The notes beneath the pieces were generated by a model. It searched no databases and was not told the DNA's origin. It was given only the letters and a program-made list of their open reading frames with translations. Position numbers and translations under genes: made by a program. DNA of 64,000 nt from Pirellulales bacterium (GTDB lineage: Bacteria; Planctomycetota; Planctomycetia; Pirellulales; JBBDJB01), in contig JBBDJB010000025.1 of NCBI GenBank assembly GCA_040880125.1, forward strand, positions 34,268 to 98,267. The letters run 5' to 3'. Of this stretch, positions 2,841 through 44,120 are shown one piece after another; position 1 is the first letter of the stretch; each line of letters opens with the position of its first letter.

Positions 2841-3637
2841 GAGAACCTGTCAGAAGGATCGCAATGCGGCACAATCCCTGTTCATGGTAATAACTATTGG
2901 AAGTACCGCAATTCGCCTAACTGGTGACGACGCCCGTTTTTCGCGACTTCGCTCGGTAGATAATACGGCCTGTATCATTTTGATAATTGTGATGGTGATT
3001 CGTCATGTGCCGACCGCGCCGGTCAAGTTGACTCGCGTCCCAGTCGGCCTCGCAAGCGGAGTTGTCTTTCAACCGGCCTCTTTCGGCTCACCAGAGCAAA
3101 CCCGCTGAGCGACCGCGATGTCCGGCAGGTGCAGCGCACTGACGCGATCGTGCATCTCACACAAGTGCCCGGCGGCACGCCTGGCGAGTGCCCCGGATGC
3201 CCTGGCGCTCACCCACGGCCGGCGAATAGCTTTAACAATTCTAGGACATCCTTGACGGGCCGAGCCTGTCGCCTCGTCGCTGCCAACTCCTTGAAATACG
3301 CATCCGGCAACCTTTCGCGCGGGACGGTCTACCATGACGGCCCCGAACGGAACTGCTCGCGCCGTGGCAGCTTTCTAAGTGCGATCCGATAATCCGGACA
3401 GCCCGCAAGGTTTAACGCACGAGCGGGAAAAAGCCGGTTTTGCCGGGCCATTTTCGCCGACTCCAACCCGAGCCAACGTATCGAACTTGCCGATAACAAT
3501 GGCTAGCAGTCGGTACAGGGCGACCATGGTTCGCATTGCCATCACTGCGCCCCACCCCCACCGTCCCCGCCACGCCTTCCACACCTGGCCTGTGGGCGAT
3601 TCACACCGCGGCCCATACGAACCCTCAAGGCAGCTCC

Positions 3638-5392
3638 ATGGATGGACCAACTCGCTACTGGGCCCTGGCAATAGCGCTGGTGGTCCTGACGGGCTGCTAC
3701 CACCACCCTGCGCATGACGTGGTATTCGACGCCGCCAGCTTTGCGCCGCCTCCGGTGACCTGTTGCGAGACCTACACCTCCGGTGTATTTGCCGATCCGG
3801 CCGCCATGGCGCCGCCGGTCATTACGGCCGCGGTCGACGAAATTCCGCGGCGCGAGCAGGTGCCGCTCTCGCTGACAGAAGCCAGGCGAATCGCCCTGGA
3901 AAACAACAAGAACATCGCCGTCGTCGGATTTCTCCCCGGCGAAGCCGAGGCAATCATCGCCGCGGAAATCGGCGTGTTCGACACCATCGGCGGCTTCGAA
4001 GCCGAGGCGGGCAAGCTCGACGAGCAGGTGGTCAGCCTCATCGAGTCGGTTGGTTCCCTCTCGCCCACGCAGCAGACCGACTTCTTCTCGCCGCTGGACA
4101 TGAACAATATTTACGTTCAACAGCCCCTGCGGACCGGCGGTATTGTCGAAGTAGGGCTCGGCACGGACTACCAGTTCCTCGATCCGGCCGGTTCGTTCGT
4201 TTTCGTCAACCCGGCTTGGCGCTCTGCGCTGAACTTGAGCATCACGCAGCCTATCTTCCAGGATGCCGGGCGCGCGGTTGTCGAAGCCCCCATCCGGATC
4301 GCGCAGGCCAATCACCAGCAGGCCGTGCACGACTTCCAGACGGTTGTGCGGACGGTGCTTCGCGAAACGGAAGAGGCCTACTGGACCGTCTATCTGGCGA
4401 AGCGAGAACTGGACATACAGAATGATGCGTTCTACCAGGCGGCCGACACCTTCGAGCGGGAAGAAGAATTGCTGAATCTCGGCGAAGGCGCGCTTCCGGA
4501 CCTGGCCGAAGCAGAAACCCAATTCGAGGCGTTCCGCATCGCCCGCGCCCAGGCGCAGTTTGGCTACGATGCGGCGCAGCGAAACCTGACTCGGCTGCTC
4601 GGCTTCCCGGTCGATTACAGCCGCGAGGTCGTACCGGAAACAGCACCAGAAGTTGAGCCGGTGAATCTGGATTGGTCGATGGCGGTCGTCGCGGTCCAAC
4701 AGCGGCCGGAGATTCTCGCCCAGCAGGCAACCATCCGGGCCGCGCAGACGAACCTCTTTCTCCAGGAAAATGGGCTGGCGCCGGATATCGACGTTGGCTT
4801 CGACTATGCCATCACCGGTCTGGCCGACCGGTTTGACGACTCGATGGATGTCGTGGGCGACAATGACTTCAACAACTGGACGCTCGGCCTGAGCTGGCAA
4901 CGTCCGTTCGGCCGGTTGGTCGCCAACGCGGCAGTGCGCCAGGCACGCCTGGCCTTGAGCCGCGAGATGGCGGCCCTGGATGAGATCGAGCTGGAGGTGA
5001 TGCACGAGTTGCACCAGGCGTACCAGCGACTGGTCACCGCGCAGCGGGTGCTGGAAATGCACGCCCGGCGCCGCGCCGCGGCCGCGCAGCAGTTGGAGGC
5101 CCGGCGTGAGCTGTACCTGCAGCGCCGTGCCACGCTCGACCTGCAGCTCGAAGCCGAACAGATTTACGCCATCGCCCGGCTGGCCGAGAGCGCCGCTTTG
5201 ACGGAGTACCAACAGGCACTGGTCGAGTGGCGATTCGCCAGCGGAACGATGTTCAACAGCGGCGTTGTCATCGAAGAAGCGGTCCCCACCCCCGAGTCGG
5301 ACGAAGCCGCGCCGGAGGAAGCTGTGGATCCCGCAGCGAACGACGCACAAGCCCCCATGCCGCCGCAAATTCAGCGCGTGCCGATGCCGTAA
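3638..5392 (+). CDS. TolC-family outer membrane efflux/export protein (lipoprotein-type signal)
   Basis: The ORF 3536..5392 has an internal ATG at 3638 giving MDGPTRYWALAIALVVLTGC, a lipobox-like signal. LSLTEARRIALENNKNIAV plus a duplicated helical-repeat architecture is typical of the outer membrane efflux protein family. The antisense 685-aa ORF is treated as a shadow. Confidence 0.75.
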   Translation: MDGPTRYWALAIALVVLTGCYHHPAHDVVFDAASFAPPPVTCCETYTSGVFADPAAMAPPVITAAVDEIPRREQVPLSLTEARRIALENNKNIAVVGFLPGEAEAIIAAEIGVFDTIGGFEAEAGKLDEQVVSLIESVGSLSPTQQTDFFSPLDMNNIYVQQPLRTGGIVEVGLGTDYQFLDPAGSFVFVNPAWRSALNLSITQPIFQDAGRAVVEAPIRIAQANHQQAVHDFQTVVRTVLRETEEAYWTVYLAKRELDIQNDAFYQAADTFEREEELLNLGEGALPDLAEAETQFEAFRIARAQAQFGYDAAQRNLTRLLGFPVDYSREVVPETAPEVEPVNLDWSMAVVAVQQRPEILAQQATIRAAQTNLFLQENGLAPDIDVGFDYAITGLADRFDDSMDVVGDNDFNNWTLGLSWQRPFGRLVANAAVRQARLALSREMAALDEIELEVMHELHQAYQRLVTAQRVLEMHARRRAAAAQQLEARRELYLQRRATLDLQLEAEQIYAIARLAESAALTEYQQALVEWRFASGTMFNSGVVIEEAVPTPESDEAAPEEAVDPAANDAQAPMPPQIQRVPMP

Positions 5393-28954: not shown

Positions 28955-29680
28955 CTACTCCCCCTCAAACGTCTCCCGCAGCGCTGCGGCCAAATCGCGA
29001 AGCGGCTGCTCGCCTTGCCCGCTGTAGGAGGAGCCGTGCATGATGGCCAGCGTTTGCGGCTGGAGGACGGATAGCCCGCGCAAGATGCCCTCGGTCTGGC
29101 GCGTGTACGGCATGTAGCCGGCCAGGGGACCGGCCTGCATCTGCTGCATCGCGCGGCGGCTCGGCTCGACCAGGTCGGACGTGGTCAGCGCCGCCACGTC
29201 GCCGAAGTGGTGGAACAGGTCGGAGCAGAAGAGCGTCTGCCGGGTTTCCTCGAACAGCACGCCCGCGTCCCAGCCGTGCGGAATGTGCGGCGAGCGATAG
29301 AAGCGGTACCGGTACTTGCCCGTGGTGAGCACGTCGTCCGCCGTCATGCCGAGCGCGGGCCGGATGGCGAAGTCGTCGACATTGACCAGCTTGCCGACCA
29401 GTGTGCAGACGGGCTGGGCCTGCGGGGCGATCCGCAGCCAGTCGTTCAGCGCGCCGCATTCGTCCGACTCGAAGTGGCTCCAGGCGATGTGGCGGAGCGT
29501 GGCCGGATCGATCAACGTGGCGACCGCGTCACGCAGCGCCGGGAACATCGCCCGCAGGCCCGTGTGAAACAGCAGCGGCTCCTCATCGCGCACCAGGAAG
29601 TGATTGAACTGCATATCGAGCGGCGGGACGTAGATCGAGAGCCGGAACAGATCGGGGGCGATTTCGTCGATGGTGGCCAT
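28955..29680 (-). CDS. MBL-fold metallo-hydrolase-like protein (ODP/flavodiiron-type lactamase domain)
   Basis: Start placed at the ATG (complement of 29678-29680), giving [43 protein letters not shown] resembles the H.E.DH.G metal motif. The longer ORF to 29932 would read through a heptamer repeat and into the GT gene. Confidence 0.75.
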
Positions 29681-29683
29681 GTG

Positions 29684-29730
29684 CGGGGTTCGGGGTTCGG
29701 GGTTCGGGGTTCGGGGTTCGGGGTGCGGGG
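29684..29730. repeat. tandem heptanucleotide repeat (CGGGGTT)x5 + CGGGGTG + CGGGG
   Basis: Read directly from the sequence. It gives seven GGGG runs on the + strand (C-rich on the mRNA-sense strand of the MBL gene). It begins 4 nt upstream of that gene's start codon, and the unit length is not a multiple of 3. Confidence 0.95.
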
Positions 29731-29813
29731 CAGCCGACGCGTGTCGATTCCGTCGCGGCCGCCCGCTGAGGCTCGATGCACGGCCGGGTTTTTGCGTCGC
29801 GATACTCCCCGCG

Positions 29814-31094
29814 CTATCGCGTAGATTTCTGTTGAAGCACATTTTCCAGCGCATCGCAAGCGCGCTGAACGCCGCGCTCTTGGAGGACTTGCTGCCGGAT
29901 GCGAGATGCTCGCTCCGCATAGGCGGGATCATCGAGCAAGCGACTCAGTTCCGCCGCCGCGCGCTGCGGCGTGTAGCGGCCTTTGGTAAGCGTGCGAGCG
30001 ATGCCCAGCCGAGTGGCGCGATGGGCATGATCCGGTTGGTCCCACGCGTGAGGAACCACGAGCATCGGCCGGCCCGACCGCATGGCGTGGGCCGTCGTGC
30101 CGACTCCTCCGTGATGGACGATTGCCGCAGCCCGTGGAAACAGCTCCGCGTAAGGTGCGTATGGTGCGGCGATCACGCCCGGCGGCAGTGAAGTTAAGCA
30201 GTTGTGGCTCTGGCGGCCCACGATGAGGACTGCGCGGCGGTTCAAGATCTTCGCGCATCTCGCGCTCTGTTCGAAGAACGAGCCGGCGTGCCCGGAGACG
30301 GCCGAGCCGAGCGTGAAGACGATCGGCGGAGGCCCTTCCTCCAGAAAACTGGCTACCGACTCAGGCAGCGCTGCCTGGGTAGGTTCCTCGTAGAACGGAA
30401 AGCCGGTGAGGATCGTCTGCCGAGGCCAATCGGGCTGCCGTTCTGCGAGCAGACTGGAAAACAGCGCCAGAACCAGCAGCGGCGAGTGACTATCGAAGAG
30501 CGGATTGCCATCGGTCACCGGCGGGAGGCCGAGCTTCTTCCGCAGCCGGTACCAGTCTCTGCCAATGAATCGCGTGGCACGTTTTCCGAACCAGAGCAGC
30601 GGCCTCCACAATGCCGGACCGGCGACCCGCAGCTTGCGCGAGAGCAGCGGAGCGACATCGAGTACCGGCGGGTCGTGTGCGGACAAGAACACCAGCGGGA
30701 TGTGTACTGCCGAGACCCACGGGATCGCCGTCTTTTCTGCCACCAAACGCGCGGCGTAACTGGCGTGCATGGCGACGAGCAGGTCCGCACCTCGGGCTGC
30801 CGTCAGCGTGTCCTCATACGTTTCCGCAAGCGCTGGCATCACCAACTCGCGGCCGACGCGCAGCAAACCCCAGCGTGGATGGCTAAGCCGTCGAACCGCA
30901 TCGCCGTCCTGCAGCCAATCGCAGTCCGGACGCACCGAGCGGAACTCAAGCCCTAGCGACTCGACCTTTTCCCGATAGCACGGGCTGGTGGCCATAACCG
31001 CCTGGTGACCGCGCCGGTGCAACTCGAGGGCGATCGCCAGGTAAGGGTGCAGGTCGCCCAACGAACCCCAGGTCGTGATGACAATTCGGCTCAT
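29814..31094 (-). CDS. GT1-family glycosyltransferase (UDP-glucuronosyl/MGT/rhamnosyltransferase-like)
   Basis: [33 protein letters not shown] and [31 protein letters not shown] match the GT-B donor-binding signature. Confidence 0.85.
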
Positions 31095-31333: not shown

Positions 31334-31888
31334 ATGAACGCAGCGCCCACGACCAGCACTACGAACGACTCTGTCCGCTTTGATCCAACCGCGATCACGC
31401 GGCCTGACCCCACCTTGCTGCAGTACTACCTTGTCATCTCTCTGCTGACGCTCGTCGGCTTCCCGTTCGTCTTTTTGCCGCTGCTTTTCAAATACTACAC
31501 ATTGAAGTACCGTTTCGACGACAGCGGCATTTCGATGAGTTGGGGAATTCTCTTCCGCCGCGAGATCCACTTGACGTACCGCCGAATTCAGGACATCCAT
31601 CTGACGCGCAATCTGATTCAGCGCTGGATGGGATTGGCAACGGTCGGGGTTCAAACGGCTTCGGGTAGCGCCGGGCCGGAGATGAGCATCGAAGGCGTTC
31701 TGCAGGCGGAACAACTCCGCGACTTCCTGTACGCGGAGATGCGCGGAGCGAAAGCGGAGGCGAGTTCGGATCTCCCGGCCACGGGCGACGCGCGGGATGC
31801 CCAAGCGACGGACGACGAGGCGCTCTCTCTATTGCGAGAGATCCGCGACGAACTGCGTCGGCTGGCGGAAGGGAAGGGCGGGCTATGA
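31334..31888 (+). CDS. bacterial PH-domain membrane protein (YdbS-like)
   Basis: Two TM helices followed by YYTLKYRFDDSGISMSWGILFRREIHLTYRRIQDIHLTRNLIQRWMGLATVGVQTASG. ATG at 31334 is preferred over the TTG at 31319. Confidence 0.75.
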   Translation: MNAAPTTSTTNDSVRFDPTAITRPDPTLLQYYLVISLLTLVGFPFVFLPLLFKYYTLKYRFDDSGISMSWGILFRREIHLTYRRIQDIHLTRNLIQRWMGLATVGVQTASGSAGPEMSIEGVLQAEQLRDFLYAEMRGAKAEASSDLPATGDARDAQATDDEALSLLREIRDELRRLAEGKGGL

Positions 31889-32640
31889 GCGGCCGGGTCG
31901 AACAGGTGTCGCAGTGGTGCTATCGGGGCGTGTGGGGCGTACTCACTCGCTGGTTTCGTGTTCCGGATCGACCGCCGACGCTGCCCTCGCTGTCGGGGGA
32001 GAAAATCACGTCGTTCCAGCCGGATCGCGGATTCCTACGGTATCTGCTCTTGCAATTCTGGATCGCTCTGGTGGTGATCGACGGAGTGATTCTTGTCGGT
32101 TGGCTCGTCATCACGATTGCGTCTCCGATTGTGGGCGCGATCCTCTTCGTACCTGCGTTGATCCTGGCCATCGTGCCCGACATCGTCGCCTACCTGGCGG
32201 TTCATCTGCGATTCGATACCACATGGTACGTGATGGGAGACCGAAGCCTGCGAATCCGTCGCGGGATTTGGGTGATCCACGAGACCACGTTGACGTTCGA
32301 AAACGTGCAAAACGTTTCGGTCCGTCAAGGTCCGGTGCAACGTTACTTCGGCATTTCGAATCTGCTTGTAGATACTGCCGGAGGGGGCCAATCGCAGGCC
32401 GGCCCGCACGGCGTGCAAGCCATGACCGCTCATCGTGGCCTGATCGAAGGGATTGCGGACGCCCAGCGGATTCGGGATTTGATCATGAAGCAGTTGCGCA
32501 AGTCGCGCTCGGCCGGTTTGGGCGACGAAGGGGACCTGCCCCATGCGGGGCGGAGTTGGGCCGCGGCTCACCTATCTGCACTGCGAGAAGTTCGCGACGC
32601 GGTGCGTGCCCTGCCACCGCCGGCAACGCCGAGCTCCTGA
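31885..32640 (+). CDS. bacterial PH-domain membrane protein (YdbT-like)
   Basis: ATGA overlap with the upstream gene. Carries YVMGDRSLRIRRGIWVIHETTLTFENVQNVSVRQGPVQRYFGISNLLVDTAGG. Confidence 0.75.
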   Translation: MSGRVEQVSQWCYRGVWGVLTRWFRVPDRPPTLPSLSGEKITSFQPDRGFLRYLLLQFWIALVVIDGVILVGWLVITIASPIVGAILFVPALILAIVPDIVAYLAVHLRFDTTWYVMGDRSLRIRRGIWVIHETTLTFENVQNVSVRQGPVQRYFGISNLLVDTAGGGQSQAGPHGVQAMTAHRGLIEGIADAQRIRDLIMKQLRKSRSAGLGDEGDLPHAGRSWAAAHLSALREVRDAVRALPPPATPSS

Positions 32641-32691: not shown

Positions 32692-34020
32692 CTACTCCGG
32701 GCATCCAAACTCCCGCAGCACGATGCCCGCGACGTCGACGTCGCGCAAGGCGTCGCTGCCGAGGACGCCGGGCTTTGAACTGAGCAGCACGCCGCGCTGG
32801 CTGGCGTCGTGGGCCGGCGCTCCGTGCGAGCCGCGGGTGAGCGTGGCGTCCAGCGGGATGCTGCGGGTCGCCATGTCCAGGTGCATCTCGACGGGGTCGT
32901 AGCCCGGCTTGCGGTGGATGTCGACCGTGCGGGCAAAACTTGGCGCCTGCGCGTCGTCCAGCCACCAGTAGTAGGCCTGCCAACTGTTCGGCTCGGAGAT
33001 GAGCACCAACTCGCCGCTGCGGGCGTGGTTAAGATGGTACTTCGAAAGGCCGTCTCCTTGAAGCACCTCCGCCACCCCTTCGCGGCCCTCGAACAACCCG
33101 GCAACCTGGGCGATAACCTGCGGATCGGCATCGCGGACGAAGACGTGCGAGAACTGGTGATCGACCAGCGCCCAGGCGCGGCTGCCGGCCAGATCGAGAT
33201 GCTCGCCGTCCTCGTCGCGGCGGACTTGCAAAAGACCGGCGTCTCGAAGCAAGCGGTTGGGATACAGCACGTGATCGACCGGGACGATCGTGTACTCGCT
33301 GGCGGCCAGCCAGAACAGTTCCGCTTCGGCGTAGCTCTCCGCGAAGCCGGTAGCCATACGGGCGATCACCTCGTCCAACTCGGTCAGGGCGGTCAGCGCC
33401 TGTTCGCTGTCCGGGCCGAGCTTCTGCGCGGCGTAGTCCAGATGCGTCAGATAGATGTAGAAGAATCGCGGCCGCCACCGCTGCGCGGCGACCACGGCCG
33501 AGTCCGCGATCCAGGCGGTGGCCTTGATGTTGGCCAAGGGGCCCCAGAAGTGTTGCAGCGGGAAGTGGCCCATCTGGTCGCGCAGCTCGCCGTACAGCGA
33601 CTCGGGCCGGGTGTAGCACCACAGCGACTCGCTGCCGTCGGGGTTATGAATCGGCGCCGGCGTGCAGATCGTGTCCGCCCCGCAGCCCTTGCTGTGCATG
33701 GGAAACCACACGGCCGAGGTGAGCTGCGGATCGCGCTGGTGCAGCAGGTCCCAAATCTGCGGCCTCGTGATGCAGTCGTTCCAGGCGGTCCACATCTCGA
33801 CTTCGCCGCGGTCGCGCCAGTAGAAGCCGTTGGCCACCACGCCGTGCGCGTTGGGAAGCGCACCGGTGGTCATGTTCGCCTGCACAGGGCAAGTGACCGC
33901 CGGAAAGCTGGGCGTGAGCGTTGCCTGCTCGGCGCCACACAGCGCCGCCAGGCGCGGCATGCGGGCGAGATCCTGCCGGCGGAGTCCGGGAATCGACAAC
34001 AGCACAACGGACTGGGTCAT
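32692..34020 (-). CDS. alkaline-phosphatase-superfamily enzyme (type I phosphodiesterase / nucleotide pyrophosphatase family)
   Basis: [14 protein letters not shown]...[36 protein letters not shown] contains the nucleophile Thr motif region of the ENPP/AP family. Confidence 0.85.
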
Positions 34021-34212
34021 CGGGGCGGCGATCCGTGCTGGGCGAGAAGCGGCTGGAGAAACGCGGCGGCCTGCGGACCTTCGTGGCTGTGCCGGCTAAG
34101 CTCGACGTACAGCCCGCCATCATAGCCGACCTCGGCCAGCGCGGCGACGACCGGCGTTACCTTCGCCGCGAGGCGTTACGACGCACACCTGCTACCAGCC
34201 AGCCCCTTTTAC

Positions 34213-35187
34213 TCACGTCGAGTAAATCCACCGGCCGATCAGCATGGCCGGAATGGTCAACAGCAACACCATCACGGCCCAAAAGCTGCCGCGCACCGCG
34301 AAGACCACCACCGCGTCGAGCAGGATCAGCGAGAGGATGCAGTGCTTCACCGCGGCCTGCACGTTGCCGGGGCTGGGCGTGATCACCGCCCGTACGCATC
34401 GCCACGCGATCAGCACGGCGATCAATCCCCAGAACACGAACCACCGCGAGATCGGCACGATGATGCGGCGGTCCCAGTTGGGCAGCCAAGCCAACAGCGC
34501 AATGCCGGCCAGCAGCACGAGCGTGGCCAGTGCGAGTTGCCACCGCCCGCTGGTGACGGCCTCGCGCCGGGCGAACCACGTGACGCCAACGATATAGACG
34601 CCGATGCCGGCGGCCACCAGCCAGTGCGCGGTCTGCCACGGCAGCGGCGTGCCCAGCAGCGGATCGACGGCCAGGCTCATGCCGAGTAGCACGTTCAAAA
34701 AGCGGCATCCCCCCATGGCGACCGGACCCAGCGGGGTGCGCTTTAGGCCCGCGTCGTAGGCGAGCACGCACAGCGCCAGTGCACTGGCCACAATGCCGGC
34801 GCGCAGATCGCCGGCGAAGAAGCTGGCCAGCCACCCCAGCGCGGCTCCAAGAATCAGCAGTTCAAAGCCGAGCCACCGCGCGACGAACAGCGAGACGCGG
34901 CCCGAGGGTATCGGGCGGCTGGGCCGCTCCTGGCGATCGACCTCCACGTCGAACACGTCGTTGAGCACCATGCCGGCGGTGTAGAGCAGGCACGAGGCGG
35001 CGAATAGAAGAAAAAACAGCCCCGCCGGCTGGAGCGTGGGGTGCGTGAATAGAAAGCCCATCATCACGTCGGCGACCGCCGTGAAGATGTTCGGCAGGCG
35101 GAACAGTTGCAGATATGCCTGCGCGCGCGAACCGCCCACGCTCGCGGACGCAGGCTTCGCACGGGCAGTGGACTGGCTGCCGTTCAC
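34213..35187 (-). CDS. UbiA-family aromatic prenyltransferase
   Basis: YLQLFRLPNIFTAVADVMMGF and the NDVFDVEVDRQERPSRPIPSG motif (NDxxDxxxD), with ~8 TM segments. Start set at the GTG (complement of 35185-35187), which forms a GTGA overlap with the upstream stop. The longer ORF to 35475 would overlap the epimerase by ~290 nt. Confidence 0.8.
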   Translation of the reverse strand: MNGSQSTARAKPASASVGGSRAQAYLQLFRLPNIFTAVADVMMGFLFTHPTLQPAGLFFLLFAASCLLYTAGMVLNDVFDVEVDRQERPSRPIPSGRVSLFVARWLGFELLILGAALGWLASFFAGDLRAGIVASALALCVLAYDAGLKRTPLGPVAMGGCRFLNVLLGMSLAVDPLLGTPLPWQTAHWLVAAGIGVYIVGVTWFARREAVTSGRWQLALATLVLLAGIALLAWLPNWDRRIIVPISRWFVFWGLIAVLIAWRCVRAVITPSPGNVQAAVKHCILSLILLDAVVVFAVRGSFWAVMVLLLTIPAMLIGRWIYST

Positions 35188-36215
35188 AACAGTCGCACCC
35201 CGTTTCCATTCTCCTGGGCGTAATGGACGATCCCCCGCTCGATCCGCACACCGCTGGCCACGTCCTCGGCCAACAGCAGCGGCCCGTCCATGTCCACGTA
35301 GTCGAGCAGCGGCAACAACTGCGCGATGGCCGAGATGCCTACGGTCGACTCGGTCATGCAGCCGACCATCGTTCGCAAACCGAGCGACCGTGCCTCGTCG
35401 ATCATCCGCCGCGCAGGCGTCATCCCCCCGCACTTGACGAGCTTGACGTTTACTCCGTGAAAATATTCCGCGCACTTCGCCACGTCGGGCTCGGCAATAC
35501 AGCTTTCGTCGGCGATCACCGGCAGCGAGGTTTCGGCATAAACGCGCCGCATGCCGTCCGTATCTTCCGGCGGCAGCGGCTGCTCGATGAACTGGACGTT
35601 CAGCTCGGCCAACTGTCGCGACTTCTCGATCGCCTCGTCGGCCGACCAGCCGCAGTTGGCATCAACGCGGAATATCGCGTCGGTGTGCTGCCGCAACTGG
35701 CGGACGATCTCGACGTCGTGAGGCGTGCCGAGCTTGATCTTGTAGACGGGAAAGTCCGGCATCTCCCGCAGCTTGGCGATCATTTTGTCCAACTCATCGA
35801 TACCGATCGTGTAGTCGGTTGGCGGCCGATGCTCGGGCAACAGCCCCCACAGCCGATACACCGGTTGCCCTAGCCGCTTCCCCCACAGATCGTGTGCCGC
35901 CTGATCGAGGGCACACTGGGCAAACGGCTGAGATGCCAGGTCGGGCTGCATGGCTTGCCAGAAGTCGGCCGGCCAGGTGATAGTTCCGTCCTCGCTCGGC
36001 TCGATGGCTTCAATCTTTGCCCGGGCCGAGTCCAGTGCCGCCGTGATCGCTTCGATCGTCGCCCCGTAGTAGTCGGTCTCGGGCGCTTCGCCGTAGCCGG
36101 AGTGGACGCCGTCGGACAGCTCGACAACGAGCGTCCGCTGCACGTGGGTTGTGCCGCGCGCGATCGTGAATGCGTGACGCAGGGCCAGATCGAAACGGTG
36201 CAGCGTCATTTTCAT
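35184..36215 (-). CDS. enolase-superfamily dipeptide epimerase (L-Ala-D/L-Glu epimerase-like)
   Basis: Start MKMTLHRF forms an ATGA overlap with the DUF1611 stop. Motifs YKIKLG, RVDANCGW, IEQPL, IADES and NVKLVKCGG are the MLE-subgroup catalytic pattern. Confidence 0.8.
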   Translation of the reverse strand: MKMTLHRFDLALRHAFTIARGTTHVQRTLVVELSDGVHSGYGEAPETDYYGATIEAITAALDSARAKIEAIEPSEDGTITWPADFWQAMQPDLASQPFAQCALDQAAHDLWGKRLGQPVYRLWGLLPEHRPPTDYTIGIDELDKMIAKLREMPDFPVYKIKLGTPHDVEIVRQLRQHTDAIFRVDANCGWSADEAIEKSRQLAELNVQFIEQPLPPEDTDGMRRVYAETSLPVIADESCIAEPDVAKCAEYFHGVNVKLVKCGGMTPARRMIDEARSLGLRTMVGCMTESTVGISAIAQLLPLLDYVDMDGPLLLAEDVASGVRIERGIVHYAQENGNGVRLL

Positions 36216-37249
36216 CGGACGATCTCCTCGCGGAGCCGCAAGACCGCCTGCACCAGGACGTCTGCCCCGTGGCGAAACACGTCGCATGCCGGCAGCCCCA
36301 GCTCGTCCGACGCTCGGTGGCACTCGTCATCCGCTTCGGTGGCCGACAGGCGGCGGCTGTTCACGGCGATGCCGATCGCCCGGCAGGGGTGCATGATGCC
36401 GGCCACCGTTTCGTAGATGCGGCGCAGCTCGGTCAAGGACGGCAGCGGAACGTGCTCCATGGCGGCTACCTGAGTGCGGCCTGCTTCGTAACAGAGCACT
36501 AGCCCGTCGGGCAGCGTGCCGTGCAGGATCCCCAGTGTGACGGCCGAGTAGCTGGGGTGAAACAGGCTGCCCTGTCCCTCGATCAGCAAAAAGTCGTGCT
36601 GCTGGTTAGCCAGCACAAGTTTCTCGGCGGCGCCGTTGATGAAGTCCGACACGACGCAGTCCAGCGGGCAGCCGTCGCCTTCGATCATGATGCCGGTCTG
36701 ACCGGTGGCGACGAACTTGGCGTTGTGCCCCGCGGCGGATAGTCCGCGCTGCAACTCGATGGCGGTGACCATCTTGCCGACGCTGCAATCGTGTCCCACG
36801 GTATGAATCCGCACGCAGCCCTGTCGAAAACCGGGCCGCTGGGCGATGTCGCGCTCGCGGTTCTTGCGGACGTCGTGGATAGTGACGCCGCGCTGCCGGG
36901 CCGCCTCGGCGAACTCGGCATCGTCGCTGATAAAGTCGTGCAGGCCCGAGACGATATTCATCCCGCGCGTGATGGCCTTCAGGATAACCGGCCGCCAGGC
37001 GTCGGGGATGCGACCGCCGCGCGGCGCGATTCCGATCAGCAGCGTGTCGGCCGACGGTGCTTCTTCCAGCGAGCCGACCACGGGAATTCCACCGCCCACG
37101 CCCAAGAGTGCCTGCGAGGTAACCCCGCGCTGGGTGCTGTCCAGCACGGCGACGACTTCATCGGTGCGATAGCGAATGACACTGGCCGCCGTCTTGGCGG
37201 TATGCGGATTAGTGTGCCCCTCGGTCAGGATGACGATCTTGCGCGTCAT
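36212..37249 (-). CDS. DUF1611 domain protein
   Basis: MTRKIVILTEGHTNPHTAKTAASVIRYRTDEVVAVLDS and a P-loop-like core match what I recall of DUF1611. This family is commonly next to dipeptide epimerases. Confidence 0.75.
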   Translation of the reverse strand: MTRKIVILTEGHTNPHTAKTAASVIRYRTDEVVAVLDSTQRGVTSQALLGVGGGIPVVGSLEEAPSADTLLIGIAPRGGRIPDAWRPVILKAITRGMNIVSGLHDFISDDAEFAEAARQRGVTIHDVRKNRERDIAQRPGFRQGCVRIHTVGHDCSVGKMVTAIELQRGLSAAGHNAKFVATGQTGIMIEGDGCPLDCVVSDFINGAAEKLVLANQQHDFLLIEGQGSLFHPSYSAVTLGILHGTLPDGLVLCYEAGRTQVAAMEHVPLPSLTELRRIYETVAGIMHPCRAIGIAVNSRRLSATEADDECHRASDELGLPACDVFRHGADVLVQAVLRLREEIVR

Positions 37250-37336
37250 GCGATTCTCTCACGGCGCCCGTATCTGAATTTCACCGAGTAGGGTCCGCAG
37301 CGGACGCTACGTGCCGGCGCCTCTTGCCGATGCAGT

Positions 37337-38197
37337 TCACTCGACCGGGATCTCCAGCTTGCCCATCGCCGCGGTCAGGTACTCGCGGGCCTCGCGGGCG
37401 GCGTCGTCCGGCGCATCGATATAAGGATACAGCTCCACAGTCACCCAGCCATCGTACCCGCTGCCACGAATCGCCTGGAGCGTGGCCGGAAAGTCGATGG
37501 CCCCGCGGCCGGGGATCAGGTGCTTGTGCACTCGCGTGCCGGCAATGTCCTCGAAGTGGTAGTGGCGGGTGTGCGCGGCCATCCGATCGACCCAGTCCTG
37601 CGGATCCTCTCCGACGCAGTAGGCGTGCCCGATGTCGAAGTTTAGCCCCACCCGCGGCGAGTCGACCCGCTCCATGAACTTCAGGTACTGGCCGAATGTT
37701 TCGATCAACAGCCCCGGCTCGGGCTCGATCAGCAGATCGACGCCCACCTCCTCGGCCACCTCGACGCAGGGCATCAGCTCTTCATAAAAGATGTCGGCCG
37801 CCTGCTCCCAGGTCTGCCCCGGGGCCAGTTCACCGCCCGGCTCGGTCGTGATATTCGGCCCGCCGATCTCCCGGGCCAGCCGCAACGCCCGCTTGGTGTG
37901 CTCGCGGCGAATGGCGCGGTAGTGCGGGTCGGGATCCGTCCAGCCGGGGTGCCAGTACGGCTGTCGCGGATCGGCCACGGCGTTCATCATAAACGCGTTG
38001 ATATTGGAAATGGTCAACCCGTGCCGGTCCAGGGCCTTGCGAATCGACTCCTTCCGCTCTTCAAGTAGTCCCGCCGGCCAGGCGTGGGGCACGTCGGCCA
38101 GCACTTCGATGCCGCGGTAGCCCAACTCCGCGATCCGGGCGATCGTGTCCTCGATCGAGAAGTGCATGTAGGCATTGGAACTGAAGGCGAGTTTCAT
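37337..38197 (-). CDS. sugar-phosphate isomerase/epimerase (xylose-isomerase-like TIM barrel)
   Basis: MKLAFSSNAY...ELGYRGIEV...NFDIGHAY...HYHFEDI fits the AP_endonuc_2 / TIM-barrel pattern. Confidence 0.8.
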   Translation of the reverse strand: MKLAFSSNAYMHFSIEDTIARIAELGYRGIEVLADVPHAWPAGLLEERKESIRKALDRHGLTISNINAFMMNAVADPRQPYWHPGWTDPDPHYRAIRREHTKRALRLAREIGGPNITTEPGGELAPGQTWEQAADIFYEELMPCVEVAEEVGVDLLIEPEPGLLIETFGQYLKFMERVDSPRVGLNFDIGHAYCVGEDPQDWVDRMAAHTRHYHFEDIAGTRVHKHLIPGRGAIDFPATLQAIRGSGYDGWVTVELYPYIDAPDDAAREAREYLTAAMGKLEIPVE

Positions 38198-38400
38198 GGC
38201 GGGGCTCGGTGGGGAGGAATCACAGCACGGCCTGTCGCCGCGGCCGGCTTCTCGGAAAGCCTGTCATTGTACTTTGCCGCCCGTGGGGGTGAAACCACAG
38301 GTGGGAAAAACTGGCCGCCGGTGATGGCGGAAAACTCGCCTGGTGAAGAGTGAGTGGAGAGGAGAGTGCAGTGAGATTGGGCATAGTTTGCTCTGAGCAT

Positions 38401-38552: not shown

Positions 38553-39824
38553 TCAATCTGTAGCGCTACTGGCTTTTGGCGCCGTTGGCGCGGCTTCCCC
38601 GGAGGACGTTGAGTTCTGAGGAGAGGGCTCTTCCGCCGAAAACGAACTGAAACCGGGTGAGTGGTTTAAGCTATTTGCATCTAATAGGTCCTGCGCCTTC
38701 TTCCGGTAACCATCCAGATTCGTCAGTTGTTCGAGCGTAGTCACGTTTGGGAGACGATAACCTCGCAATCGCAATTCGTGATTCACCATGGCCCAATACA
38801 TAGGATCGCGCAAGTGATCTGAAGGCGGGTTCGATAGTTGCGTTTCTAAGGCTTTCGCTAGATGCTTCACGATTCGAGGGACCTCCAGATCGGGCATGCC
38901 ATCAACTAAATCGAGGGACGCCACCATCAGTGTGCTGCCCAAATTAGGCTTTCCTCCGTTACCAACTGCGAGGACTTCGTATCCTGCCTGTATGACTCCC
39001 ATCAGTGCCGTCGCAGCATCTCGTTCGACAGACTCGACATAGTCATCCGATTGTTCAATACTCTGTAACGCTGTACGGAAGTGCCTTCGACCTCTCTCCG
39101 GCCGTCCCAAGGCATACTCAATTCGTGCCAACTGCCCCTGAAGCTGCAGCCGAAGATTCGTGTTTGCCGCTTTGGAAAGTCCGCGCTCAGCATATTCACG
39201 AGCAGATTTCATCTGCCCTGAGTTGTACATTCCAACCGATATCGCGAGCAGATCGCCCGCAAGCACTTTGCTTTCATTGAGTTTACTTAGTTCGTCAACT
39301 AATGCCACGCCCTGTTCTATCAGTGTTTCATTCGCTTGGATAAACCGTAGGTAGCCGAGCGTCGCATCTGTACGTACTCTAGTCGCTGTAACATCATCGC
39401 CGCCGTCCTCGAGCGTGTCCGCTACTGCTGATGCAATATTGAAGAACCCGTCTGCCATTATCTTGTTATAATAGACCTCTTGGTGTAAGTCGGTTAATTC
39501 AGCGCGAATACCTAAAAGGCGCTCGTGTCGCAAACGCTCGTTGGCGCGCCGTCCCTCCAGATACGTATAAATACCAGCAATGGTCGCGATCAGAAGTGTG
39601 CCCGTGACACCAACGCCCTGTAGCCGATTGCTAGGCTTATTGAGTCCGAAGGCCGCACAACACTTTCCGAGCCTTCCTGTTTTGGGCGAAGCAACTCTTC
39701 GTTCTTCTAACACCGTCGTACCCTCCTTTGTAAAGTAGCACCGGGACGGATAAAATCGCTCCGTTGCTGGACCAAACCGCAACACCGCGGGACTGCAGCC
39801 TAAGAACACCTCAGCATAAACCAT
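38553..39824 (-). CDS. hypothetical membrane-anchored protein with helical (TPR-like) repeats and a Ser/Pro-rich tail
   Basis: Low-GC ORF with a single TM segment (VGVTGTLLIATIAGIYTYL). TPR-like text: AREYAERGLSKAANTNLRLQLQGQLARIEYALGRPERGRRHFRTALQ. The start codon is uncertain and no family was recognised. Confidence 0.5.
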   Translation of the reverse strand: MVYAEVFLGCSPAVLRFGPATERFYPSRCYFTKEGTTVLEERRVASPKTGRLGKCCAAFGLNKPSNRLQGVGVTGTLLIATIAGIYTYLEGRRANERLRHERLLGIRAELTDLHQEVYYNKIMADGFFNIASAVADTLEDGGDDVTATRVRTDATLGYLRFIQANETLIEQGVALVDELSKLNESKVLAGDLLAISVGMYNSGQMKSAREYAERGLSKAANTNLRLQLQGQLARIEYALGRPERGRRHFRTALQSIEQSDDYVESVERDAATALMGVIQAGYEVLAVGNGGKPNLGSTLMVASLDLVDGMPDLEVPRIVKHLAKALETQLSNPPSDHLRDPMYWAMVNHELRLRGYRLPNVTTLEQLTNLDGYRKKAQDLLDANSLNHSPGFSSFSAEEPSPQNSTSSGEAAPTAPKASSATD

Positions 39825-40083: not shown

Positions 40084-40911
40084 TCAACTGCTCGCGCTGC
40101 GATACGCCAGCAGCGAACGCTGAAAGATCCACCGTGAGATGACCAGGCTGCCGATAGTCGCGATGACGGCGAACGCGGCCAGCGGCCACGACTGTCGATC
40201 CAGCGGCAGCGCCATCAGCCGGGCCGGTACGTTCACTACCACCAGCACCGGCACGATGAACGTGAACAGTTGCCGCAGCGGCGTGCCGAACGTCCCGCTG
40301 TAAATTTCCATCGGGTAGCGCGAGAAGTTCGTGATGTAAAACCAGAAGTTGTACAGCGTCTGGTTGCGGCCCAGCCAGATGCTCGTCGCCGCCAGCGTGA
40401 TCATCAGGCTGTACAGAATGGCCACGCCGAACAGGATGTACATCGGGTACAGCAGCACTTGCTGCAGCGTGGGAAGATAGTTCAATCGGTAGAGCGAGTA
40501 GCCCAACAGCAAAGGCGCAACGAGAAAGTTCGCCAGGCTCGACCAGTTCACCCGTTGCAGCGACACGAGAAACTGCGTGTCGATCGGCTTGAGCAGCGCG
40601 AAGTCCAGCGCTCCGGTGCGGATCAGTTCGCTGAACTCTTCGGCGTTGGGCATGAAGAACGCCTGAACCAGGCTGTTGACGAACATGGTCGTGGCGATGA
40701 ACACGAAGAACTGGTACTTCCCCCAGCCGGTCCCCTCGCCGATCATCGGCGTATATTGAAAGATCAAGATGTAAAAGCCCAGGTTCATCATCATCCAGGC
40801 GACCGACGAGACCGCCTCGATCAGGAAGTTGGATCGGAACGTCATGTCCCGCACCAAGCTGTTGCGGGCGAAGGTGGCGAAGACGCGGGCATAAGCCGGA
40901 CGGTGGTCCAT
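40084..40911 (-). CDS. ABC-2 family transporter permease
   Basis: Start MDHRPAYARVFATFARNSLVRDMTFRSNFLIEAVSSVAWMMMNLGFYILIF, six TM segments. Abuts the upstream permease stop. Confidence 0.75.
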   Translation of the reverse strand: MDHRPAYARVFATFARNSLVRDMTFRSNFLIEAVSSVAWMMMNLGFYILIFQYTPMIGEGTGWGKYQFFVFIATTMFVNSLVQAFFMPNAEEFSELIRTGALDFALLKPIDTQFLVSLQRVNWSSLANFLVAPLLLGYSLYRLNYLPTLQQVLLYPMYILFGVAILYSLMITLAATSIWLGRNQTLYNFWFYITNFSRYPMEIYSGTFGTPLRQLFTFIVPVLVVVNVPARLMALPLDRQSWPLAAFAVIATIGSLVISRWIFQRSLLAYRSASS

Positions 40912-40912
40912 G

Positions 40913-41740
40913 TTATCCTCCAAAACCGCTGTAGCGCCGCTGGCCACGATTCAGCGCAATGCGGCAGAGGACCATAAACACCCCGACCCAGGCCACCTGA
41001 ATCCACATCCCACGAACCAGCTCCGCCCCCTCGATCTTGCCCAGGAATACCGCCGCGGGGAAATACGCCAGGTACTTCAGCGGAATCAGGTCCACTAACT
41101 GGTTCCACGGCGCCGGCAGCATGTCGAGCGGGAACATGTGCCCTGAGAAGAAAAAGTTGAACAGCATATAGACGAACAGCAGCGAGCTGACTTCCAGGAA
41201 CCAGAAGCCGACCATGCCGATCGTGGCTTCCAGGAAGAAGCCCAGCAGGAACGACAGGATCAGCGAGACGATGTACAGCCCCAGCACCTCTGGCTCGGGC
41301 CAGCCGTGGAAGTAGCCGCGGCAGAGGAAAAACACCAGCGCGAACGGCCCGGCCGCCACGGTGTAGTAGACCAGCTTATGGGCAATACGGTTGAGCAGCA
41401 GAAAGCCGATCATGTCGATCGGCTGGATCATGAACTTCTTGATCTCGCCGTTGCGGATCTGCAGCGCGATGCCCGAGGCCAAACCCGGCATGCTGGAAAA
41501 CGCCCGGGTGATCATCGTCAGCAGGTAGTAGGCGACCATATCCTGGTAGGCATAGCCGGCGATCTGATCGCGGCCGCCGTACGCTTCGATGGCGGAGAAG
41601 ACGGCCGACCAGAGGAAGATCTGGGTCACAATCGGCAGGAAGCGCATCAGCGTGCCCAGTGCGAAGTCGCCTCGATAGACGAGGCGCTCCTCCAGGCAAA
41701 TCCGCATAATGGTCCACCAGGTGGCAACTCGGGCAATCAT
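40913..41740 (-). CDS. ABC-2 family transporter permease
   Basis: Start set at MIARVATWWTIMRICLEERLVYRGDFALGTLMRFLP (ATG complement of 41738-41740). The 170-aa N-terminal extension of the listed ORF is translated repeat DNA (HRQECLCHNDASEKG appears twice) and is rejected. Confidence 0.75.
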   Translation of the reverse strand: MIARVATWWTIMRICLEERLVYRGDFALGTLMRFLPIVTQIFLWSAVFSAIEAYGGRDQIAGYAYQDMVAYYLLTMITRAFSSMPGLASGIALQIRNGEIKKFMIQPIDMIGFLLLNRIAHKLVYYTVAAGPFALVFFLCRGYFHGWPEPEVLGLYIVSLILSFLLGFFLEATIGMVGFWFLEVSSLLFVYMLFNFFFSGHMFPLDMLPAPWNQLVDLIPLKYLAYFPAAVFLGKIEGAELVRGMWIQVAWVGVFMVLCRIALNRGQRRYSGFGG

Positions 41741-41856
41741 GTAGTTACTTGGCTTGCGTGTCGAAAAGGGGGACTGACTCGATGCACGAGTACGTCTTTC
41801 CTCTTGTAAGACCTGCCCCGCATCGAGCCAGTCCCCTTTTTCGCTCGCATCATTAT

Positions 41857-41879
41857 GGCACAGACATTCCTGTCTGTGC
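41857..41879 (+). repeat. hairpin repeat family A copy (ggcacagacattcctgtctgtgc)
   Basis: Perfect copy, embedded in the ~60-nt direct repeat 41825-41885 / 42024-42083. Confidence 0.9.
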
Positions 41880-42054
41880 GCGGTGTTGGTACCCCCTTTC
41901 CCCGCAGGGGCGAGGGAGTAAGCCGCGGTAGATGCGGCCATGGATTCGGCTGAACTCTCGCGAGCGCGAGCTACGGGCGAAAGACACGACCGTGAAAAGG
42001 GGGACAGGCACTTCGCTGCGCTCAGAGCCAGTCCCTTTTCACTCGCATCATTGT

Positions 42055-42077
42055 GGCACAGACAATCTTGTCTGAGC
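42055..42077 (+). repeat. hairpin repeat family A copy, degenerate (ggcacagacaatcttgtctgagc)
   Basis: Second copy of the ~60-nt direct repeat, with stem mismatches. Confidence 0.7.
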
Positions 42078-42105
42078 GCGGTGCGGGGGGAACGCTGTCT
42101 CAAGG

Positions 42106-42134: not shown

Positions 42135-42692
42135 AGCGCGGTGCCGAAGCAAAAAGCGGGAACGTTTATAAAAGGAATGAGTGCGAAAGTGACAGCCGGC
42201 TGCACGCGCCAGCGGGGGCAAGTGCTTGCGACATACACGCCGGCCGCCACCTCGTTATTCTCTTCCCGCGGTGTGGCGGGTGCAATCCTCCTTACGGGGG
42301 CGCTCGGACGTCGACCGATTCGATAGCGCGCAAAGTTGTCGACTGTATTCGGTAGCGCGCGAAGTTCTTGTAAACGGCAGGCCGGCTTGTTACCGTTGGC
42401 CTCGCACGGCTAGTTCTCTTGCCCGCACCCGGGCCGTGCGCTTGGGCCGTACGGAAATAGCCAACAGGAGTCGTTTCCCGCCACACTTCACGTCATTGAC
42501 CCGAAGGGAGATTCGGTCATGCAAACTTCCGGCACCTACCCGGATGTCACACCCCAGACACGATGTCACGCACTCAGTAATCCCATCTCAAGACCACGCT
42601 TATCACGGCAAAACGCAGCGGCGGCTGAGCTGCGCGGTGAGAAGTCGCCGCTTCGCCGCGCCGTTTGTGAACTGCGTGTCGTTTCCATCGGC

Positions 42693-44120
42693 ATGCTGGC
42701 GGTCGCCATGTTGTTGGCCGCGCGGCCGGCACTTGCCCAAAAGGAAGCGCTGCTCGTGTCGATCGACAGTCGCGCGGACGAGACATGGCAGGCCGCCCGG
42801 CAGATTTGGGAGTGGGCCGAACCGGGTTACCAGGAGAAGCAGTCCTCCGCGGTGCTCGTCGAGATGCTCCGCGCGGCGGAGTTTGAGATCGAGCAGGGCG
42901 TGGCGGAGATTCCCACCGCGTTTACCGCCACGTTCGGGTCGGGTACGCCGGTGGTCGGCATCTTGGGCGAGTTCGACGCCCTGCCGGGACTTTCGCAGAA
43001 AGCCACGCCACAGCGCGACCCGCGCGAACCAGGCGGATATGGCCATGCCTGTGGGCATCATCTGTTCGGTACGGCGTCGGCCAGTGCCTGCATCGCGATT
43101 GCCGAGCAGATCGCAGCCGGGAACATCCAGGGCACGGTGCGCTTTTACGGCTGTCCGGCCGAGGAGGGCGGAGCCGCCAAGGCGTTCATGATTCGCGCCG
43201 GGCTGTTCGACGATTGCGATGCCGTGTTGCACTGGCACCCGAGCAGCCAGAACGCCGCCGGCGATCGCACTTGCCTGGCCCGCATGGCCGCCAAGTTCCG
43301 CTTCTACGGCACCAGCGCCCATGCCGCCGGCGCGCCGGAACAGGGGCGGTCCGCGCTGGATGCGGTCGAGCTGACCAACTACGCGGCGCAGCTTTTGCGC
43401 GAGCACACGCCCGACTTCACGCGGATTCACCACGTCATCACCGCCGGCGGCGGCGCACCGAACGTCGTGCCGGACTTCGCCGAGGTGTACTACTATATCC
43501 GCCATCCGGAGGCCGACGTCCTCAGCACACTATATCCGCGGCTGGTCAAGTGCGCGGAGGCGGGTGCTCTGGCGACCGAAACGCAGCTCGAGGTCTCCTA
43601 TCTCGGCGGCACGCAGCCGCTGCTTCCGAACAACACGCTGGCCCAGGTGGTGTTGGCGAACCTTCGCAAGCTCAACGACCTAAGCTACGACGACCAGCAG
43701 AAGGCCTTCGCGCTGCGGATCCAGGAGACGCTTGCTGAGCCTGAACCGCTGGAGGAGATCGAGGAAGTGACCGACCGCTCCGGCGACCTGGGCAAAGGCT
43801 CGACCGACGTGGGCGACGTCTCTTGGGTGGTGCCGACCACCGGCTTCTCGACTGCCTGCTGGGTGCCGGGCACGCCGGGCCACTCCTGGCAAGCGGTGGC
43901 CGCCGGCGGGATGAGCATCGGGCGGCAGGGCATGGTCCTGGCCGCCAAGGTGATGGGCGCGTCCGCCTGGGACCTGTACCAGCACTCCGAACTGATCGCG
44001 GGCGCAAAGTACGAACACTCGCGTCGTCGGGCCGGCCGCGGCTACGAATCGCTACTCGAGGATGAACAAGCGCCTCCGCTGGACTATCGTAGCGCTCCGG
44101 TCGGCGTGCTGGCGGAGTAG
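42693..44120 (+). CDS. M20-family amidohydrolase/peptidase (AbgB / M20D-like), exported
   Basis: Carries GILGEFDALPGLSQ, HACGHHLFG, YGCPAEEGGAAKAFM and FRFYGTSAHAAGAPEQGRSALDA. The signal-like MLAVAMLLAARPALAQ sets the start at 42693, which is uncertain. Confidence 0.8.
   Translation: MLAVAMLLAARPALAQKEALLVSIDSRADETWQAARQIWEWAEPGYQEKQSSAVLVEMLRAAEFEIEQGVAEIPTAFTATFGSGTPVVGILGEFDALPGLSQKATPQRDPREPGGYGHACGHHLFGTASASACIAIAEQIAAGNIQGTVRFYGCPAEEGGAAKAFMIRAGLFDDCDAVLHWHPSSQNAAGDRTCLARMAAKFRFYGTSAHAAGAPEQGRSALDAVELTNYAAQLLREHTPDFTRIHHVITAGGGAPNVVPDFAEVYYYIRHPEADVLSTLYPRLVKCAEAGALATETQLEVSYLGGTQPLLPNNTLAQVVLANLRKLNDLSYDDQQKAFALRIQETLAEPEPLEEIEEVTDRSGDLGKGSTDVGDVSWVVPTTGFSTACWVPGTPGHSWQAVAAGGMSIGRQGMVLAAKVMGASAWDLYQHSELIAGAKYEHSRRRAGRGYESLLEDEQAPPLDYRSAPVGVLAE

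Follow-up and report, generated by a model that had tools for sequence, protein, structure and literature searches.

A putative ebo-type prenyltransferase operon of a Pirellulales bacterium with an embedded DUF1611/epimerase gene pair

We analysed a 64,000-nucleotide stretch of a Pirellulales genome (contig JBBDJB010000025.1 of assembly GCA_040880125.1, positions 34,268–98,267; hereafter the window), in which positions 32692–38197 of the minus strand carry five intact open reading frames (ORFs) grouped around a UbiA-family prenyltransferase. By ORF calls and Pfam matches these encode, in the direction of reading, a small xylose-isomerase-like TIM barrel (TIM1), a DUF1611 protein, an enolase-superfamily epimerase, the prenyltransferase (UbiA) and a member of the alkaline-phosphatase family (AP) (Table 1). 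The set invites comparison with the ebo cluster, eboABCDEF, of Bacteroidota, cyanobacteria, Pseudomonas and eustigmatophyte plastids (PMC5133447; PMC6282210), whose six Ebo families were defined in PMC5133447. An earlier reading of the same DNA (the original prediction) had seen three ebo components here, coupled to an epimerase pair, and had proposed an undescribed prenylated product.

Neighboring genes of the set share stop and start codons. Read directly from the sequence, the DUF1611 stop and the epimerase start overlap as ATGA (36215..36212) and the epimerase stop and the UbiA start as GTGA (35187..35184), while in a third ATGA (34017–34020) the TGA of what remains of a further TIM-barrel gene (TIM2, see below) overlaps the ATG of AP. 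The longest possible ORFs would encode 420 aa and 379 aa. Homologues back the shorter starts used here, the nearest UbiA homologue (P0001) being 324 aa long with 92% identity over 100% of the query. An ATGA overlap also joins epimerase and UbiA in the related loci L094 and L001, and in L094 it joins DUF1611 and epimerase as well; in L089, an independent assembly of the window organism, DUF1611 is called at 3348–4385 and the epimerase from 4382. Since the overlaps are kept in orthologous loci they are not due to chance, and the start reassignment and translational coupling of the original prediction were read correctly.

TIM1 is probably the first gene of an operon. A scan for terminator consensus sequences found nothing convincing between the five genes (matches inside coding regions were disregarded), and a sigma-70-like promoter match lies shortly upstream of TIM1 (Table 1). 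The region has five such matches, with 1.6 expected, and a terminator-like hairpin (38330–38315) stands just upstream of the listed one. A search for riboswitches and other RNAs between 31.5 and 42.5 kb gave no Rfam match at E ≤ 0.1.

Table 1. Features of the operon and its surroundings (window coordinates)
Feature	Position	Strand	Details
ODP-family metallo-beta-lactamase-fold protein	28955–29932	−	
Macrolide-type (MGT/EryCIII-like) glycosyltransferase	29814–31094	−	
Bacterial PH-domain membrane protein	31885–32640	+	
AP family, EboF-like	32692–34020	−	442 aa; Pfam Phosphodiest 154.7 bits
TIM2 3′ relic	34017–34163	−	homology to the TIM2 C-terminus of relatives
UbiA, EboC-like prenyltransferase	34213–35187	−	324 aa, GTG start; Pfam UbiA 63.4 bits
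Enolase-superfamily, N-acyl-D-Glu/dipeptide epimerase-like	35184–36215	−	343 aa; MR_MLE_C 117.6 bits, MR_MLE_N 32.2 bits
DUF1611/DgcN-like	36212–37249	−	345 aa; DUF1611 235.5 bits, DUF1611_N 103.1 bits
TIM1, small xylose-isomerase-like TIM barrel	37337–38197	−	286 aa; AP_endonuc_2 159.9 bits
Sigma-70-like promoter match (weak evidence)	38266–38293	−	TTCACC-16-TACAAT, 9/12 positions; ~70 nt upstream of TIM1
423-aa ORF, no family assignment	38553–39824	−	between permeases and TIM1; only sub-threshold TPR matches
Two ABC-2 (ABC2_membrane_6) permease genes	40084–41800	−	Pfam 128 and 72 bits; 68–71% identity to the permeases of L003
M20-family peptidase	42519–44120	+	divergent from the permeases

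Ebo-type backbone

The prenyltransferase belongs with EboC rather than with the quinone enzymes. Its top NCBIfam model is EboC (NF035940, an equivalog model), at 195.8 bits against a cut-off of 250, with residues 24–319 aligned to model positions 1–287 of 292; the SCO3242 family comes second at 160.4 bits, and the 17 NCBIfam matches include no UbiA/MenA quinone model at E ≤ 0.01. A homologue from Aeoliella scores 179.5 bits against the same EboC model. The best annotated match is a Haladaptatus UbiA protein (40% identity), and identity to the EboC proteins of Bacillus and Aureibacter is 33% and 29%, respectively. UbiA retains the motif NDxxDxxxDxxERPxRPxPSG and a conserved C-terminus and is under purifying selection (ratio of nonsynonymous to synonymous substitution rates, dN/dS, 0.12 versus L093, the closest relative). 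The protein is a member of the EboC/SCO3242 branch of the family, in agreement with the original prediction.

AP is likewise best described as a full-length homologue of EboF. No curated hidden Markov model of EboF is available, and we compared AP by blastp with the AP genes of reference ebo-type clusters. Full-length matches were obtained to the AP encoded in the eboABCDEF operon of Aureibacter (34%, E 2e-95) and to those of Bacillus (37%), Streptomyces (39%) and Haladaptatus (37%), and AP shares with the reference EboF/AP proteins the motifs FPAVTC.VQ, FWGP, HLDY, DHQ..H, YYWW, DIH[RK]KPGYDP and GSHG, which are hallmarks of the family. Purifying selection also acts on AP (dN/dS 0.11 versus L093). 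Its proposed place in the EboF family finds support in both homology and motifs.

The alignment of EboF-family sequences has a further peculiarity. At the position where nucleotide pyrophosphatase/phosphodiesterase and alkaline-phosphatase enzymes carry the first metal-ligand Asp in a “DG” motif, the aligned sequences have P, I or V (SIPGL, DIISL, DVVGL, NVVGL). Both the region around the Thr nucleophile and the His/Asp motifs are retained. EboF enzymes may have an altered metal site.

The third proposed ebo component did not hold. TIM1 reaches only 27.3 bits against the EboE model (NCBIfam NF035939, cut-off 250), has 286 aa where EboE proteins have ~380 aa, and aligns with Streptomyces EboE at 26% over 213 aa; TIM2 homologues have no EboE model match. 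Thus, of the three assignments, EboC-like and EboF-like stand and EboE does not. TIM1 instead resembles the small TIM barrels (TIMa) of Haladaptatus (46%) and Bacillus (44%), each encoded immediately 5′ of an EboC-like gene, and TIM2 proteins are 44–49% identical to the product of the TIM gene immediately 3′ of the Streptomyces SCO3242 prenyltransferase. The best NCBIfam matches of both are isomerases, epimerases and dehydratases acting on sugars and inososes, for example IolE, IolO and UlaE.

The 192-bp spacer between UbiA and AP is evidently not intergenic DNA but the leftover of a second TIM-barrel gene. One frame of it encodes a 3′ relic of TIM2 whose translation shares 70% identity with the TIM2 C-terminus of L001 across 43 aa. 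In L093 (UbiA 92%, AP 95% identity) an intact TIM2 of 283 aa occupies this place, its stop overlapping the AP start, and the stretch 1003–1733 of L093 is represented by just 58 bp of the window (34214–34157), a net loss of ~673 bp. Direct repeats sought at the deletion junction amounted only to short, chance-level matches. TIM2 is also damaged in L001, where it is broken into two ORFs. A 203-aa ORF between UbiA and AP in L003 was considered as a degenerate TIM2 and rejected, having no Pfam match and no similarity to TIM2.

These genes recur together across Planctomycetota. We scanned one genome per GTDB species, obtaining 80 UbiA loci in which synteny was scored by tblastn; 70 loci had enough flank for upstream counts and 63 for downstream counts. 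TIM1 lies directly 5′ of UbiA in 36/70 loci (63–81% identity to the window TIM1) and a permease of the ABC-2 (ABC2_membrane_6) type of ATP-binding cassette (ABC) transporter does so in 17/70, such a permease being present in 20 of the 57 loci whose upstream flank reaches 4 kb or more. Downstream of UbiA, both TIM2 and AP are found in 10 loci, TIM2 only in 11, AP only in 17 and neither in 25, with AP within 3.5 kb in 27/63. The expected co-conservation of the AP and TIM genes with UbiA is thereby borne out. An EboB-like TatD gene (~42% identity to Aureibacter EboB) lies within ~7 kb in 14/84 related loci, and in one (L083) an inositol-3-phosphate synthase gene (Ino1) adjoins the cluster; EboA, EboD and true EboE, searched with reference proteins by tblastn, were never found in the 84 loci. 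The shared arrangement points to a conserved and presumably ancestral Pirellulales module, [ABC-2 exporter]-TIM1-UbiA-TIM2-AP, often with TatD nearby, which would be an ebo-type cluster of the small-TIM/Ino kind.

Four reference ebo-type clusters, taken from annotated plasmids, help to place this module: Aureibacter (eboA-TatD-eboC-DHQS-eboE-AP), a Bacillus cereus megaplasmid (L088; TIM-TatD-TIM-EboC-AP-Ino1), a haloarchaeal Haladaptatus plasmid (L086; AP..TatD-TIM-UbiA-TIM) and Streptomyces (Ino1-SCO3242-TIM-EboA-TatD-EboE-AP). With eboABCDEF it shares an EboC-branch UbiA near an EboF-family phosphoesterase, TIM-barrel enzymes in the same operon and, in related genomes, an EboB-like TatD nearby. 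However, the window lacks EboA, EboB, EboD and a true EboE of ~380 aa, its TIM barrels of ~280 aa belong to other subfamilies, its UbiA is sub-equivalog, and it adds a link to an ABC-2 exporter and the embedded DUF1611/epimerase pair. The closest overall architecture is that of the Bacillus and Haladaptatus clusters, which have a TIM1 orthologue 5′ of the prenyltransferase and an EboF-like AP and no EboE, EboD or EboA; unlike the window they carry TatD in the operon (Bacillus also inositol-3-phosphate synthase), and they are without the TIM2 subfamily, the ABC-2 exporter and the DUF1611/epimerase pair. The actinomycete SCO3242-type cluster (“Actinomycetota-type” ebo, with Ino1-3) has a member of the TIM2 subfamily, deleted in the window, directly 3′ of the prenyltransferase, and its AP is 39% identical, but its EboA, TatD, EboE and Ino1 are all absent in the window. 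Linkage of UbiA to EboF-like AP, EboB-like TatD and EboC-associated TIM barrels thus extends over Planctomycetota, Bacillus, Streptomyces and haloarchaea. The two megaplasmid clusters (L086 and L088) each have two small TIM barrels and TatD, without EboE, EboD and EboA, and the Bacillus one also has Ino1. That the closest annotated match to UbiA is haloarchaeal suggests inter-domain transfer of the small-TIM variant.

Recent work links the ebo genes to a product. According to a 2026 preprint they determine the biosynthesis of thallusin: single deletion of eboB, C, E or F abolishes thallusin in Stieleria maiorica, a planctomycete, EboC farnesylates 6,7,8-trihydroxyquinaldate, the aromatic core derives from a cyclitol and L-aspartate with partial incorporation of labelled glutamate, and in Actinomycetota an Ino1-3 inositol route replaces EboD (bioRxiv 10.64898/2026.05.21.724671). 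Farnesylation of quinolines by EboC-type enzymes is also described in PMC9235831. Planctomycete ebo genes are called scattered and without eboA in the preprint (bioRxiv 10.64898/2026.05.21.724671); the absence of eboA agrees with our results, whereas in the window and in many other Pirellulales the EboC-like, EboF-like, small-TIM and ABC-2 exporter genes form a compact module.

Comparison with Stieleria maiorica itself relied on the peptides encoded by primers (Table S6 of the preprint) for Mal15_37820, _01440, _49730 and _03990. The EboB primer peptides match the TatD genes flanking Pirellulales clusters with 1–3 mismatches. The internal EboC peptide is closest, weakly, to a Pirellulaceae member of the UbiA family (score 53, versus 46 for Aureibacter EboC), and the EboE and EboF primer peptides gave nothing usable, the EboF N-terminus looking more like Aureibacter EboF. 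A protein search for named Stieleria proteins with a Rhodopirellula-clade UbiA returned only proteins from metagenome-assembled genomes (MAGs) and metagenomes.

The DUF1611/epimerase pair

Both proteins of the pair resemble the enzymes of D-glutamate salvage. The best NCBIfam model of the epimerase is DgcA (NF042940; 224.3 bits, cut-off 400), ahead of the L-Ala-D/L-Glu epimerase (132.9 bits, cut-off 343), and the DUF1611 protein matches DgcN (NF041892) over its full length at 299.6 bits, with a cut-off of 480. The nearest solved structure to the epimerase by sequence is 3iji_A (deposited as “Muconate cycloisomerase”; 218 bits, full length), one of the entries 3IJI/3IJL/3IJQ for what is presumably a Bacteroides thetaiotaomicron enzyme; the L-Ala-D/L-Glu epimerase of the enolase superfamily from E. 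coli, YcjG, is 1JPD. By eye, VYKIKLG, RVDAN, IEQP, IADES and VKLVKCGG resemble the KxK motif, the three acidic metal ligands and the second catalytic Lys. For the DUF1611 protein, which is 100% identical to an NCBI protein labelled “MAG: Pirellulales bacterium”, the nearest solved structures by sequence are 7XRJ and 2OBN.

The DgcN-DgcA system of D-glutamate salvage (NF041892, NF042940; PMC10845958; PMC12363236) likewise combines a DUF1611 protein with an enolase-superfamily racemase/epimerase, although the window pair scores below the cut-offs (300/480 and 224/400) and its genes overlap and are embedded in a prenyltransferase operon. L-Ala-D/L-Glu epimerases offer the other comparison, in which a full-length match to 3IJI contrasts with 133 bits against an equivalog cut-off of 343. 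The pairing with DUF1611 favours a DgcA-like chemistry, with N-acyl-D-Glu as the predicted substrate.

Between TIM1 and UbiA, the pair represents an insertion specific to one lineage. A tblastn search found DUF1611/epimerase genes within 10 kb of UbiA in 0/80 GTDB Planctomycetota loci, and none of the four reference clusters contains the pair. The five-gene order of the window does not recur in these loci. Nor does the pair stand in place of the sugar-phosphate cyclase and TatD, since neither EboD nor TatD ever occupies that position in the 80 loci; that both are missing was correctly noted, and neither lies in the 64-kb window. We found the pair inside the operon only in a small sub-clade, made up of the window, L089, L094, L001 and probably L093. 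L094 (UbiA 66% identity) has the order DUF1611-epimerase-UbiA-TIM2-AP, with ATGA overlaps at DUF1611/epimerase, epimerase/UbiA and TIM2/AP. In L001 (UbiA 65%) mobile DNA truncates the epimerase, and UbiA, TIM2 and AP remain. L093 is a probable member, since the 26 nt preceding its UbiA start codon match the 3′-terminal part of the window epimerase gene. Identity of the pair within the sub-clade is 64–76%, and the epimerase has a dN/dS of 0.25 versus L094. In the region 1227–7413 of L001, the block that replaces DUF1611 and the 5′ part of the epimerase encodes a DDE_3 transposase, HTH_17 proteins and split, defence-like CAP12-PCTIR TIR-domain ORFs.

In all three other Pirellulales loci examined the pair occurs free-standing, with 59–67% identity to the window pair (epimerases 59–65%) and with genes that do not overlap (gaps of 5–150 nt). 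Two of the three adjoin genes for a Peptidase_S11/PG_binding penicillin-binding protein, a Peptidase_S66 LD-carboxypeptidase, GNAT and GHL10 proteins, which is a peptidoglycan-recycling context and accords with the link to peptide or murein recycling drawn in the original prediction; the third (L092) has unrelated neighbors.

Origin of the operon and competing explanations

Taken together, these results suggest a chimeric ebo-type operon into which an epimerase pair was inserted and from which one gene, TIM2, was lost, a reading to which we give a probability of about 0.7. The backbone would be the Pirellulales cluster [ABC-2 exporter]-TIM1-UbiA-TIM2-AP. By analogy with characterised ebo systems, TIM1 and TIM2, resembling inosose isomerases and dehydratases, might join the EboF-like phosphoesterase in converting a cyclitol or sugar-phosphate precursor, the membrane-bound EboC-like enzyme might prenylate a (hetero)aromatic or cyclitol acceptor, and the ABC-2 system might export the prenylated product. 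In an ancestor of the sub-clade a DgcN/DgcA-like two-gene module entered between TIM1 and UbiA and then became translationally coupled to UbiA, and in the window genome a recent deletion of ~670 bp removed most of TIM2. Most likely the pair keeps its role in D-Glu/muropeptide salvage and is simply co-expressed. If so, the locus is a clean case of operon fusion that is biosynthetic in look only.

Several points weigh against this account. UbiA, the DUF1611 protein and the epimerase all score under the equivalog cut-offs of their best models, so that exact functions cannot be carried over. The tblastn searches found no EboA, EboB/TatD, EboD, EboE or Ino1 in the window, only the weak similarity of TIM1 to EboE, so the source of the prenyl acceptor is not assigned by genes of the window; linkage to ebo here consists of the EboF-like AP, with no TatD in the window and no true EboE in any locus. 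Primer peptides lend orthology with the tested Stieleria proteins weak support in the case of UbiA and EboC and none in that of AP and EboF. As the contig comes from a MAG, faulty assembly could account for the loss of TIM2 and for the absence of the ABC ATPase. Finally, the epimerase/UbiA overlap is still present where UbiA identity has fallen to 65%, which speaks against purely neutral hitch-hiking and makes a real functional link conceivable.

One such link would be recruitment of the pair to an ebo-type route, supplying L-Asp or L-Glu from the D-forms, or an N-acyl amino acid or dipeptide, for the prenyl acceptor of a thallusin-like compound or a new amino-acid-derived meroterpenoid. In its favor are the 4-nt overlaps that tie DUF1611, epimerase and UbiA together, conserved in L094 and L001 at 65–66% UbiA identity and not seen in free-standing pairs; the purifying selection on the epimerase; and the entry of L-aspartate, and in part of labelled glutamate, into the thallusin core. 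We nonetheless consider this recruitment unlikely. The pair is missing from all surveyed Planctomycetota loci and from all four reference clusters, thallusin is made by ebo producers of five phyla that have no such pair (bioRxiv 10.64898/2026.05.21.724671), its cluster copies are no more divergent than the free-standing, housekeeping ones (59–67% to these, 64–76% within the sub-clade) and show no sign of neofunctionalisation, and in L001 the epimerase was truncated while UbiA, TIM2 and AP persisted. The narrower proposal that the pair forms an amino-acid-supplying or -activating arm, turning D-Asp, D-Glu or an N-acyl derivative into the L-acidic block of the quinoline core, seems quite improbable. 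An undescribed amino-acid- or dipeptide-derived prenylated molecule, as originally proposed, is weakened and not supported, and the rearrangement is not good evidence for a new metabolite.

The locus might also be decaying, with the module being lost, its product no longer made, and the intact-looking genes surviving by chance or in other roles. TIM2 is down to a relic of ~145 nt, no ABC ATPase accompanies the permeases and its expected place is taken by two 51-nt palindromic repeats, a low-GC ORF lies between the permeases and TIM1, and the relative L001 has a split TIM2 and a truncated epimerase. Against this, UbiA and AP are full length, retain all motifs and have dN/dS values of ~0.11 versus the closest relative, and TIM2, absent from many intact loci (AP only in 17/63), may be dispensable or encoded elsewhere. 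As dN/dS also integrates the period that preceded the deletion, a very recent inactivation is compatible with these values; on balance, decay appears rather unlikely. It is extremely improbable that UbiA is unrelated to ebo and makes a quinone, haem O, chlorophyll-type or archaeal-type ether-lipid product among unrelated neighbors. JGI annotates its homologues as “4-hydroxybenzoate polyprenyltransferase” and GGGP/DGGGP-type models match at 68–82 bits, but these matches cover the N-terminal half only, and the full-length EboC and SCO3242 scores are 2–3 times higher; the single match of quinone/haem type is to haem O synthase (E 1e-05), weak at 25.1 bits against 195.8 and 160.4, and the linkage to EboF-like AP, EboB-like TatD and EboC-associated TIM barrels recurs from Planctomycetota to haloarchaea.

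The locus and its relatives bear on how ebo pathways vary. Thallusin is a picomolar algal morphogen, and the roles of EboB, EboE and EboF are still to be assigned. The Pirellulales module shares gene-by-gene synteny with the Bacillus, Streptomyces and haloarchaeal variants, which provides a comparative handle on swappable accessory enzymes, with EboE exchanged for small TIM barrels and EboD for Ino-type routes. The inserted pair amounts to a natural experiment: were it functionally linked after all, it would hint at how an amino-acid precursor enters an ebo/thallusin-type pathway.

Flanking features

Upstream of TIM1, the transporter differs from that of relatives. L003 has the gene order ATPase-permease-permease, and its ATPase used as a query found no match anywhere in the 64-kb window; permeases without their cognate ATPase may reflect rearrangement or an orphaned transporter. 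At the place 5′ of the first permease where relatives have the ATPase gene, the window has two 51-nt repeats (41835–41885 and 42033–42083), 88% identical and 198 nt apart, with the internal palindrome GCACAGACA-N4-TGTCTGTGC. The element has no further copies in the window (0 expected by chance), and the repeats lengthen the permease ORF, giving an N-terminal extension with a repeated “...CLCHNDASEKG...”. The 423-aa ORF looks like an insertion that separates TIM1 from the permeases: its stretch has a GC content of 0.55, versus ~0.65 in the flanks, and it had no tblastn match in 84 related loci, and it is also present in the independent contig L089.

On the other side of the operon, neither the glycosyltransferase nor the bacterial PH-domain gene adjoins the cluster in the relatives searched, apart from one distant match (24%) ~4 kb downstream in L070. 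The M20 peptidase was considered as a deacylase partner of the DgcN/DgcA-like pair; it lies ~5 kb off on the opposite strand. Low-GC islands (0.52–0.55, versus ~0.63–0.66) also occur at 16–20, 26–28 and 48–50 kb of the window.

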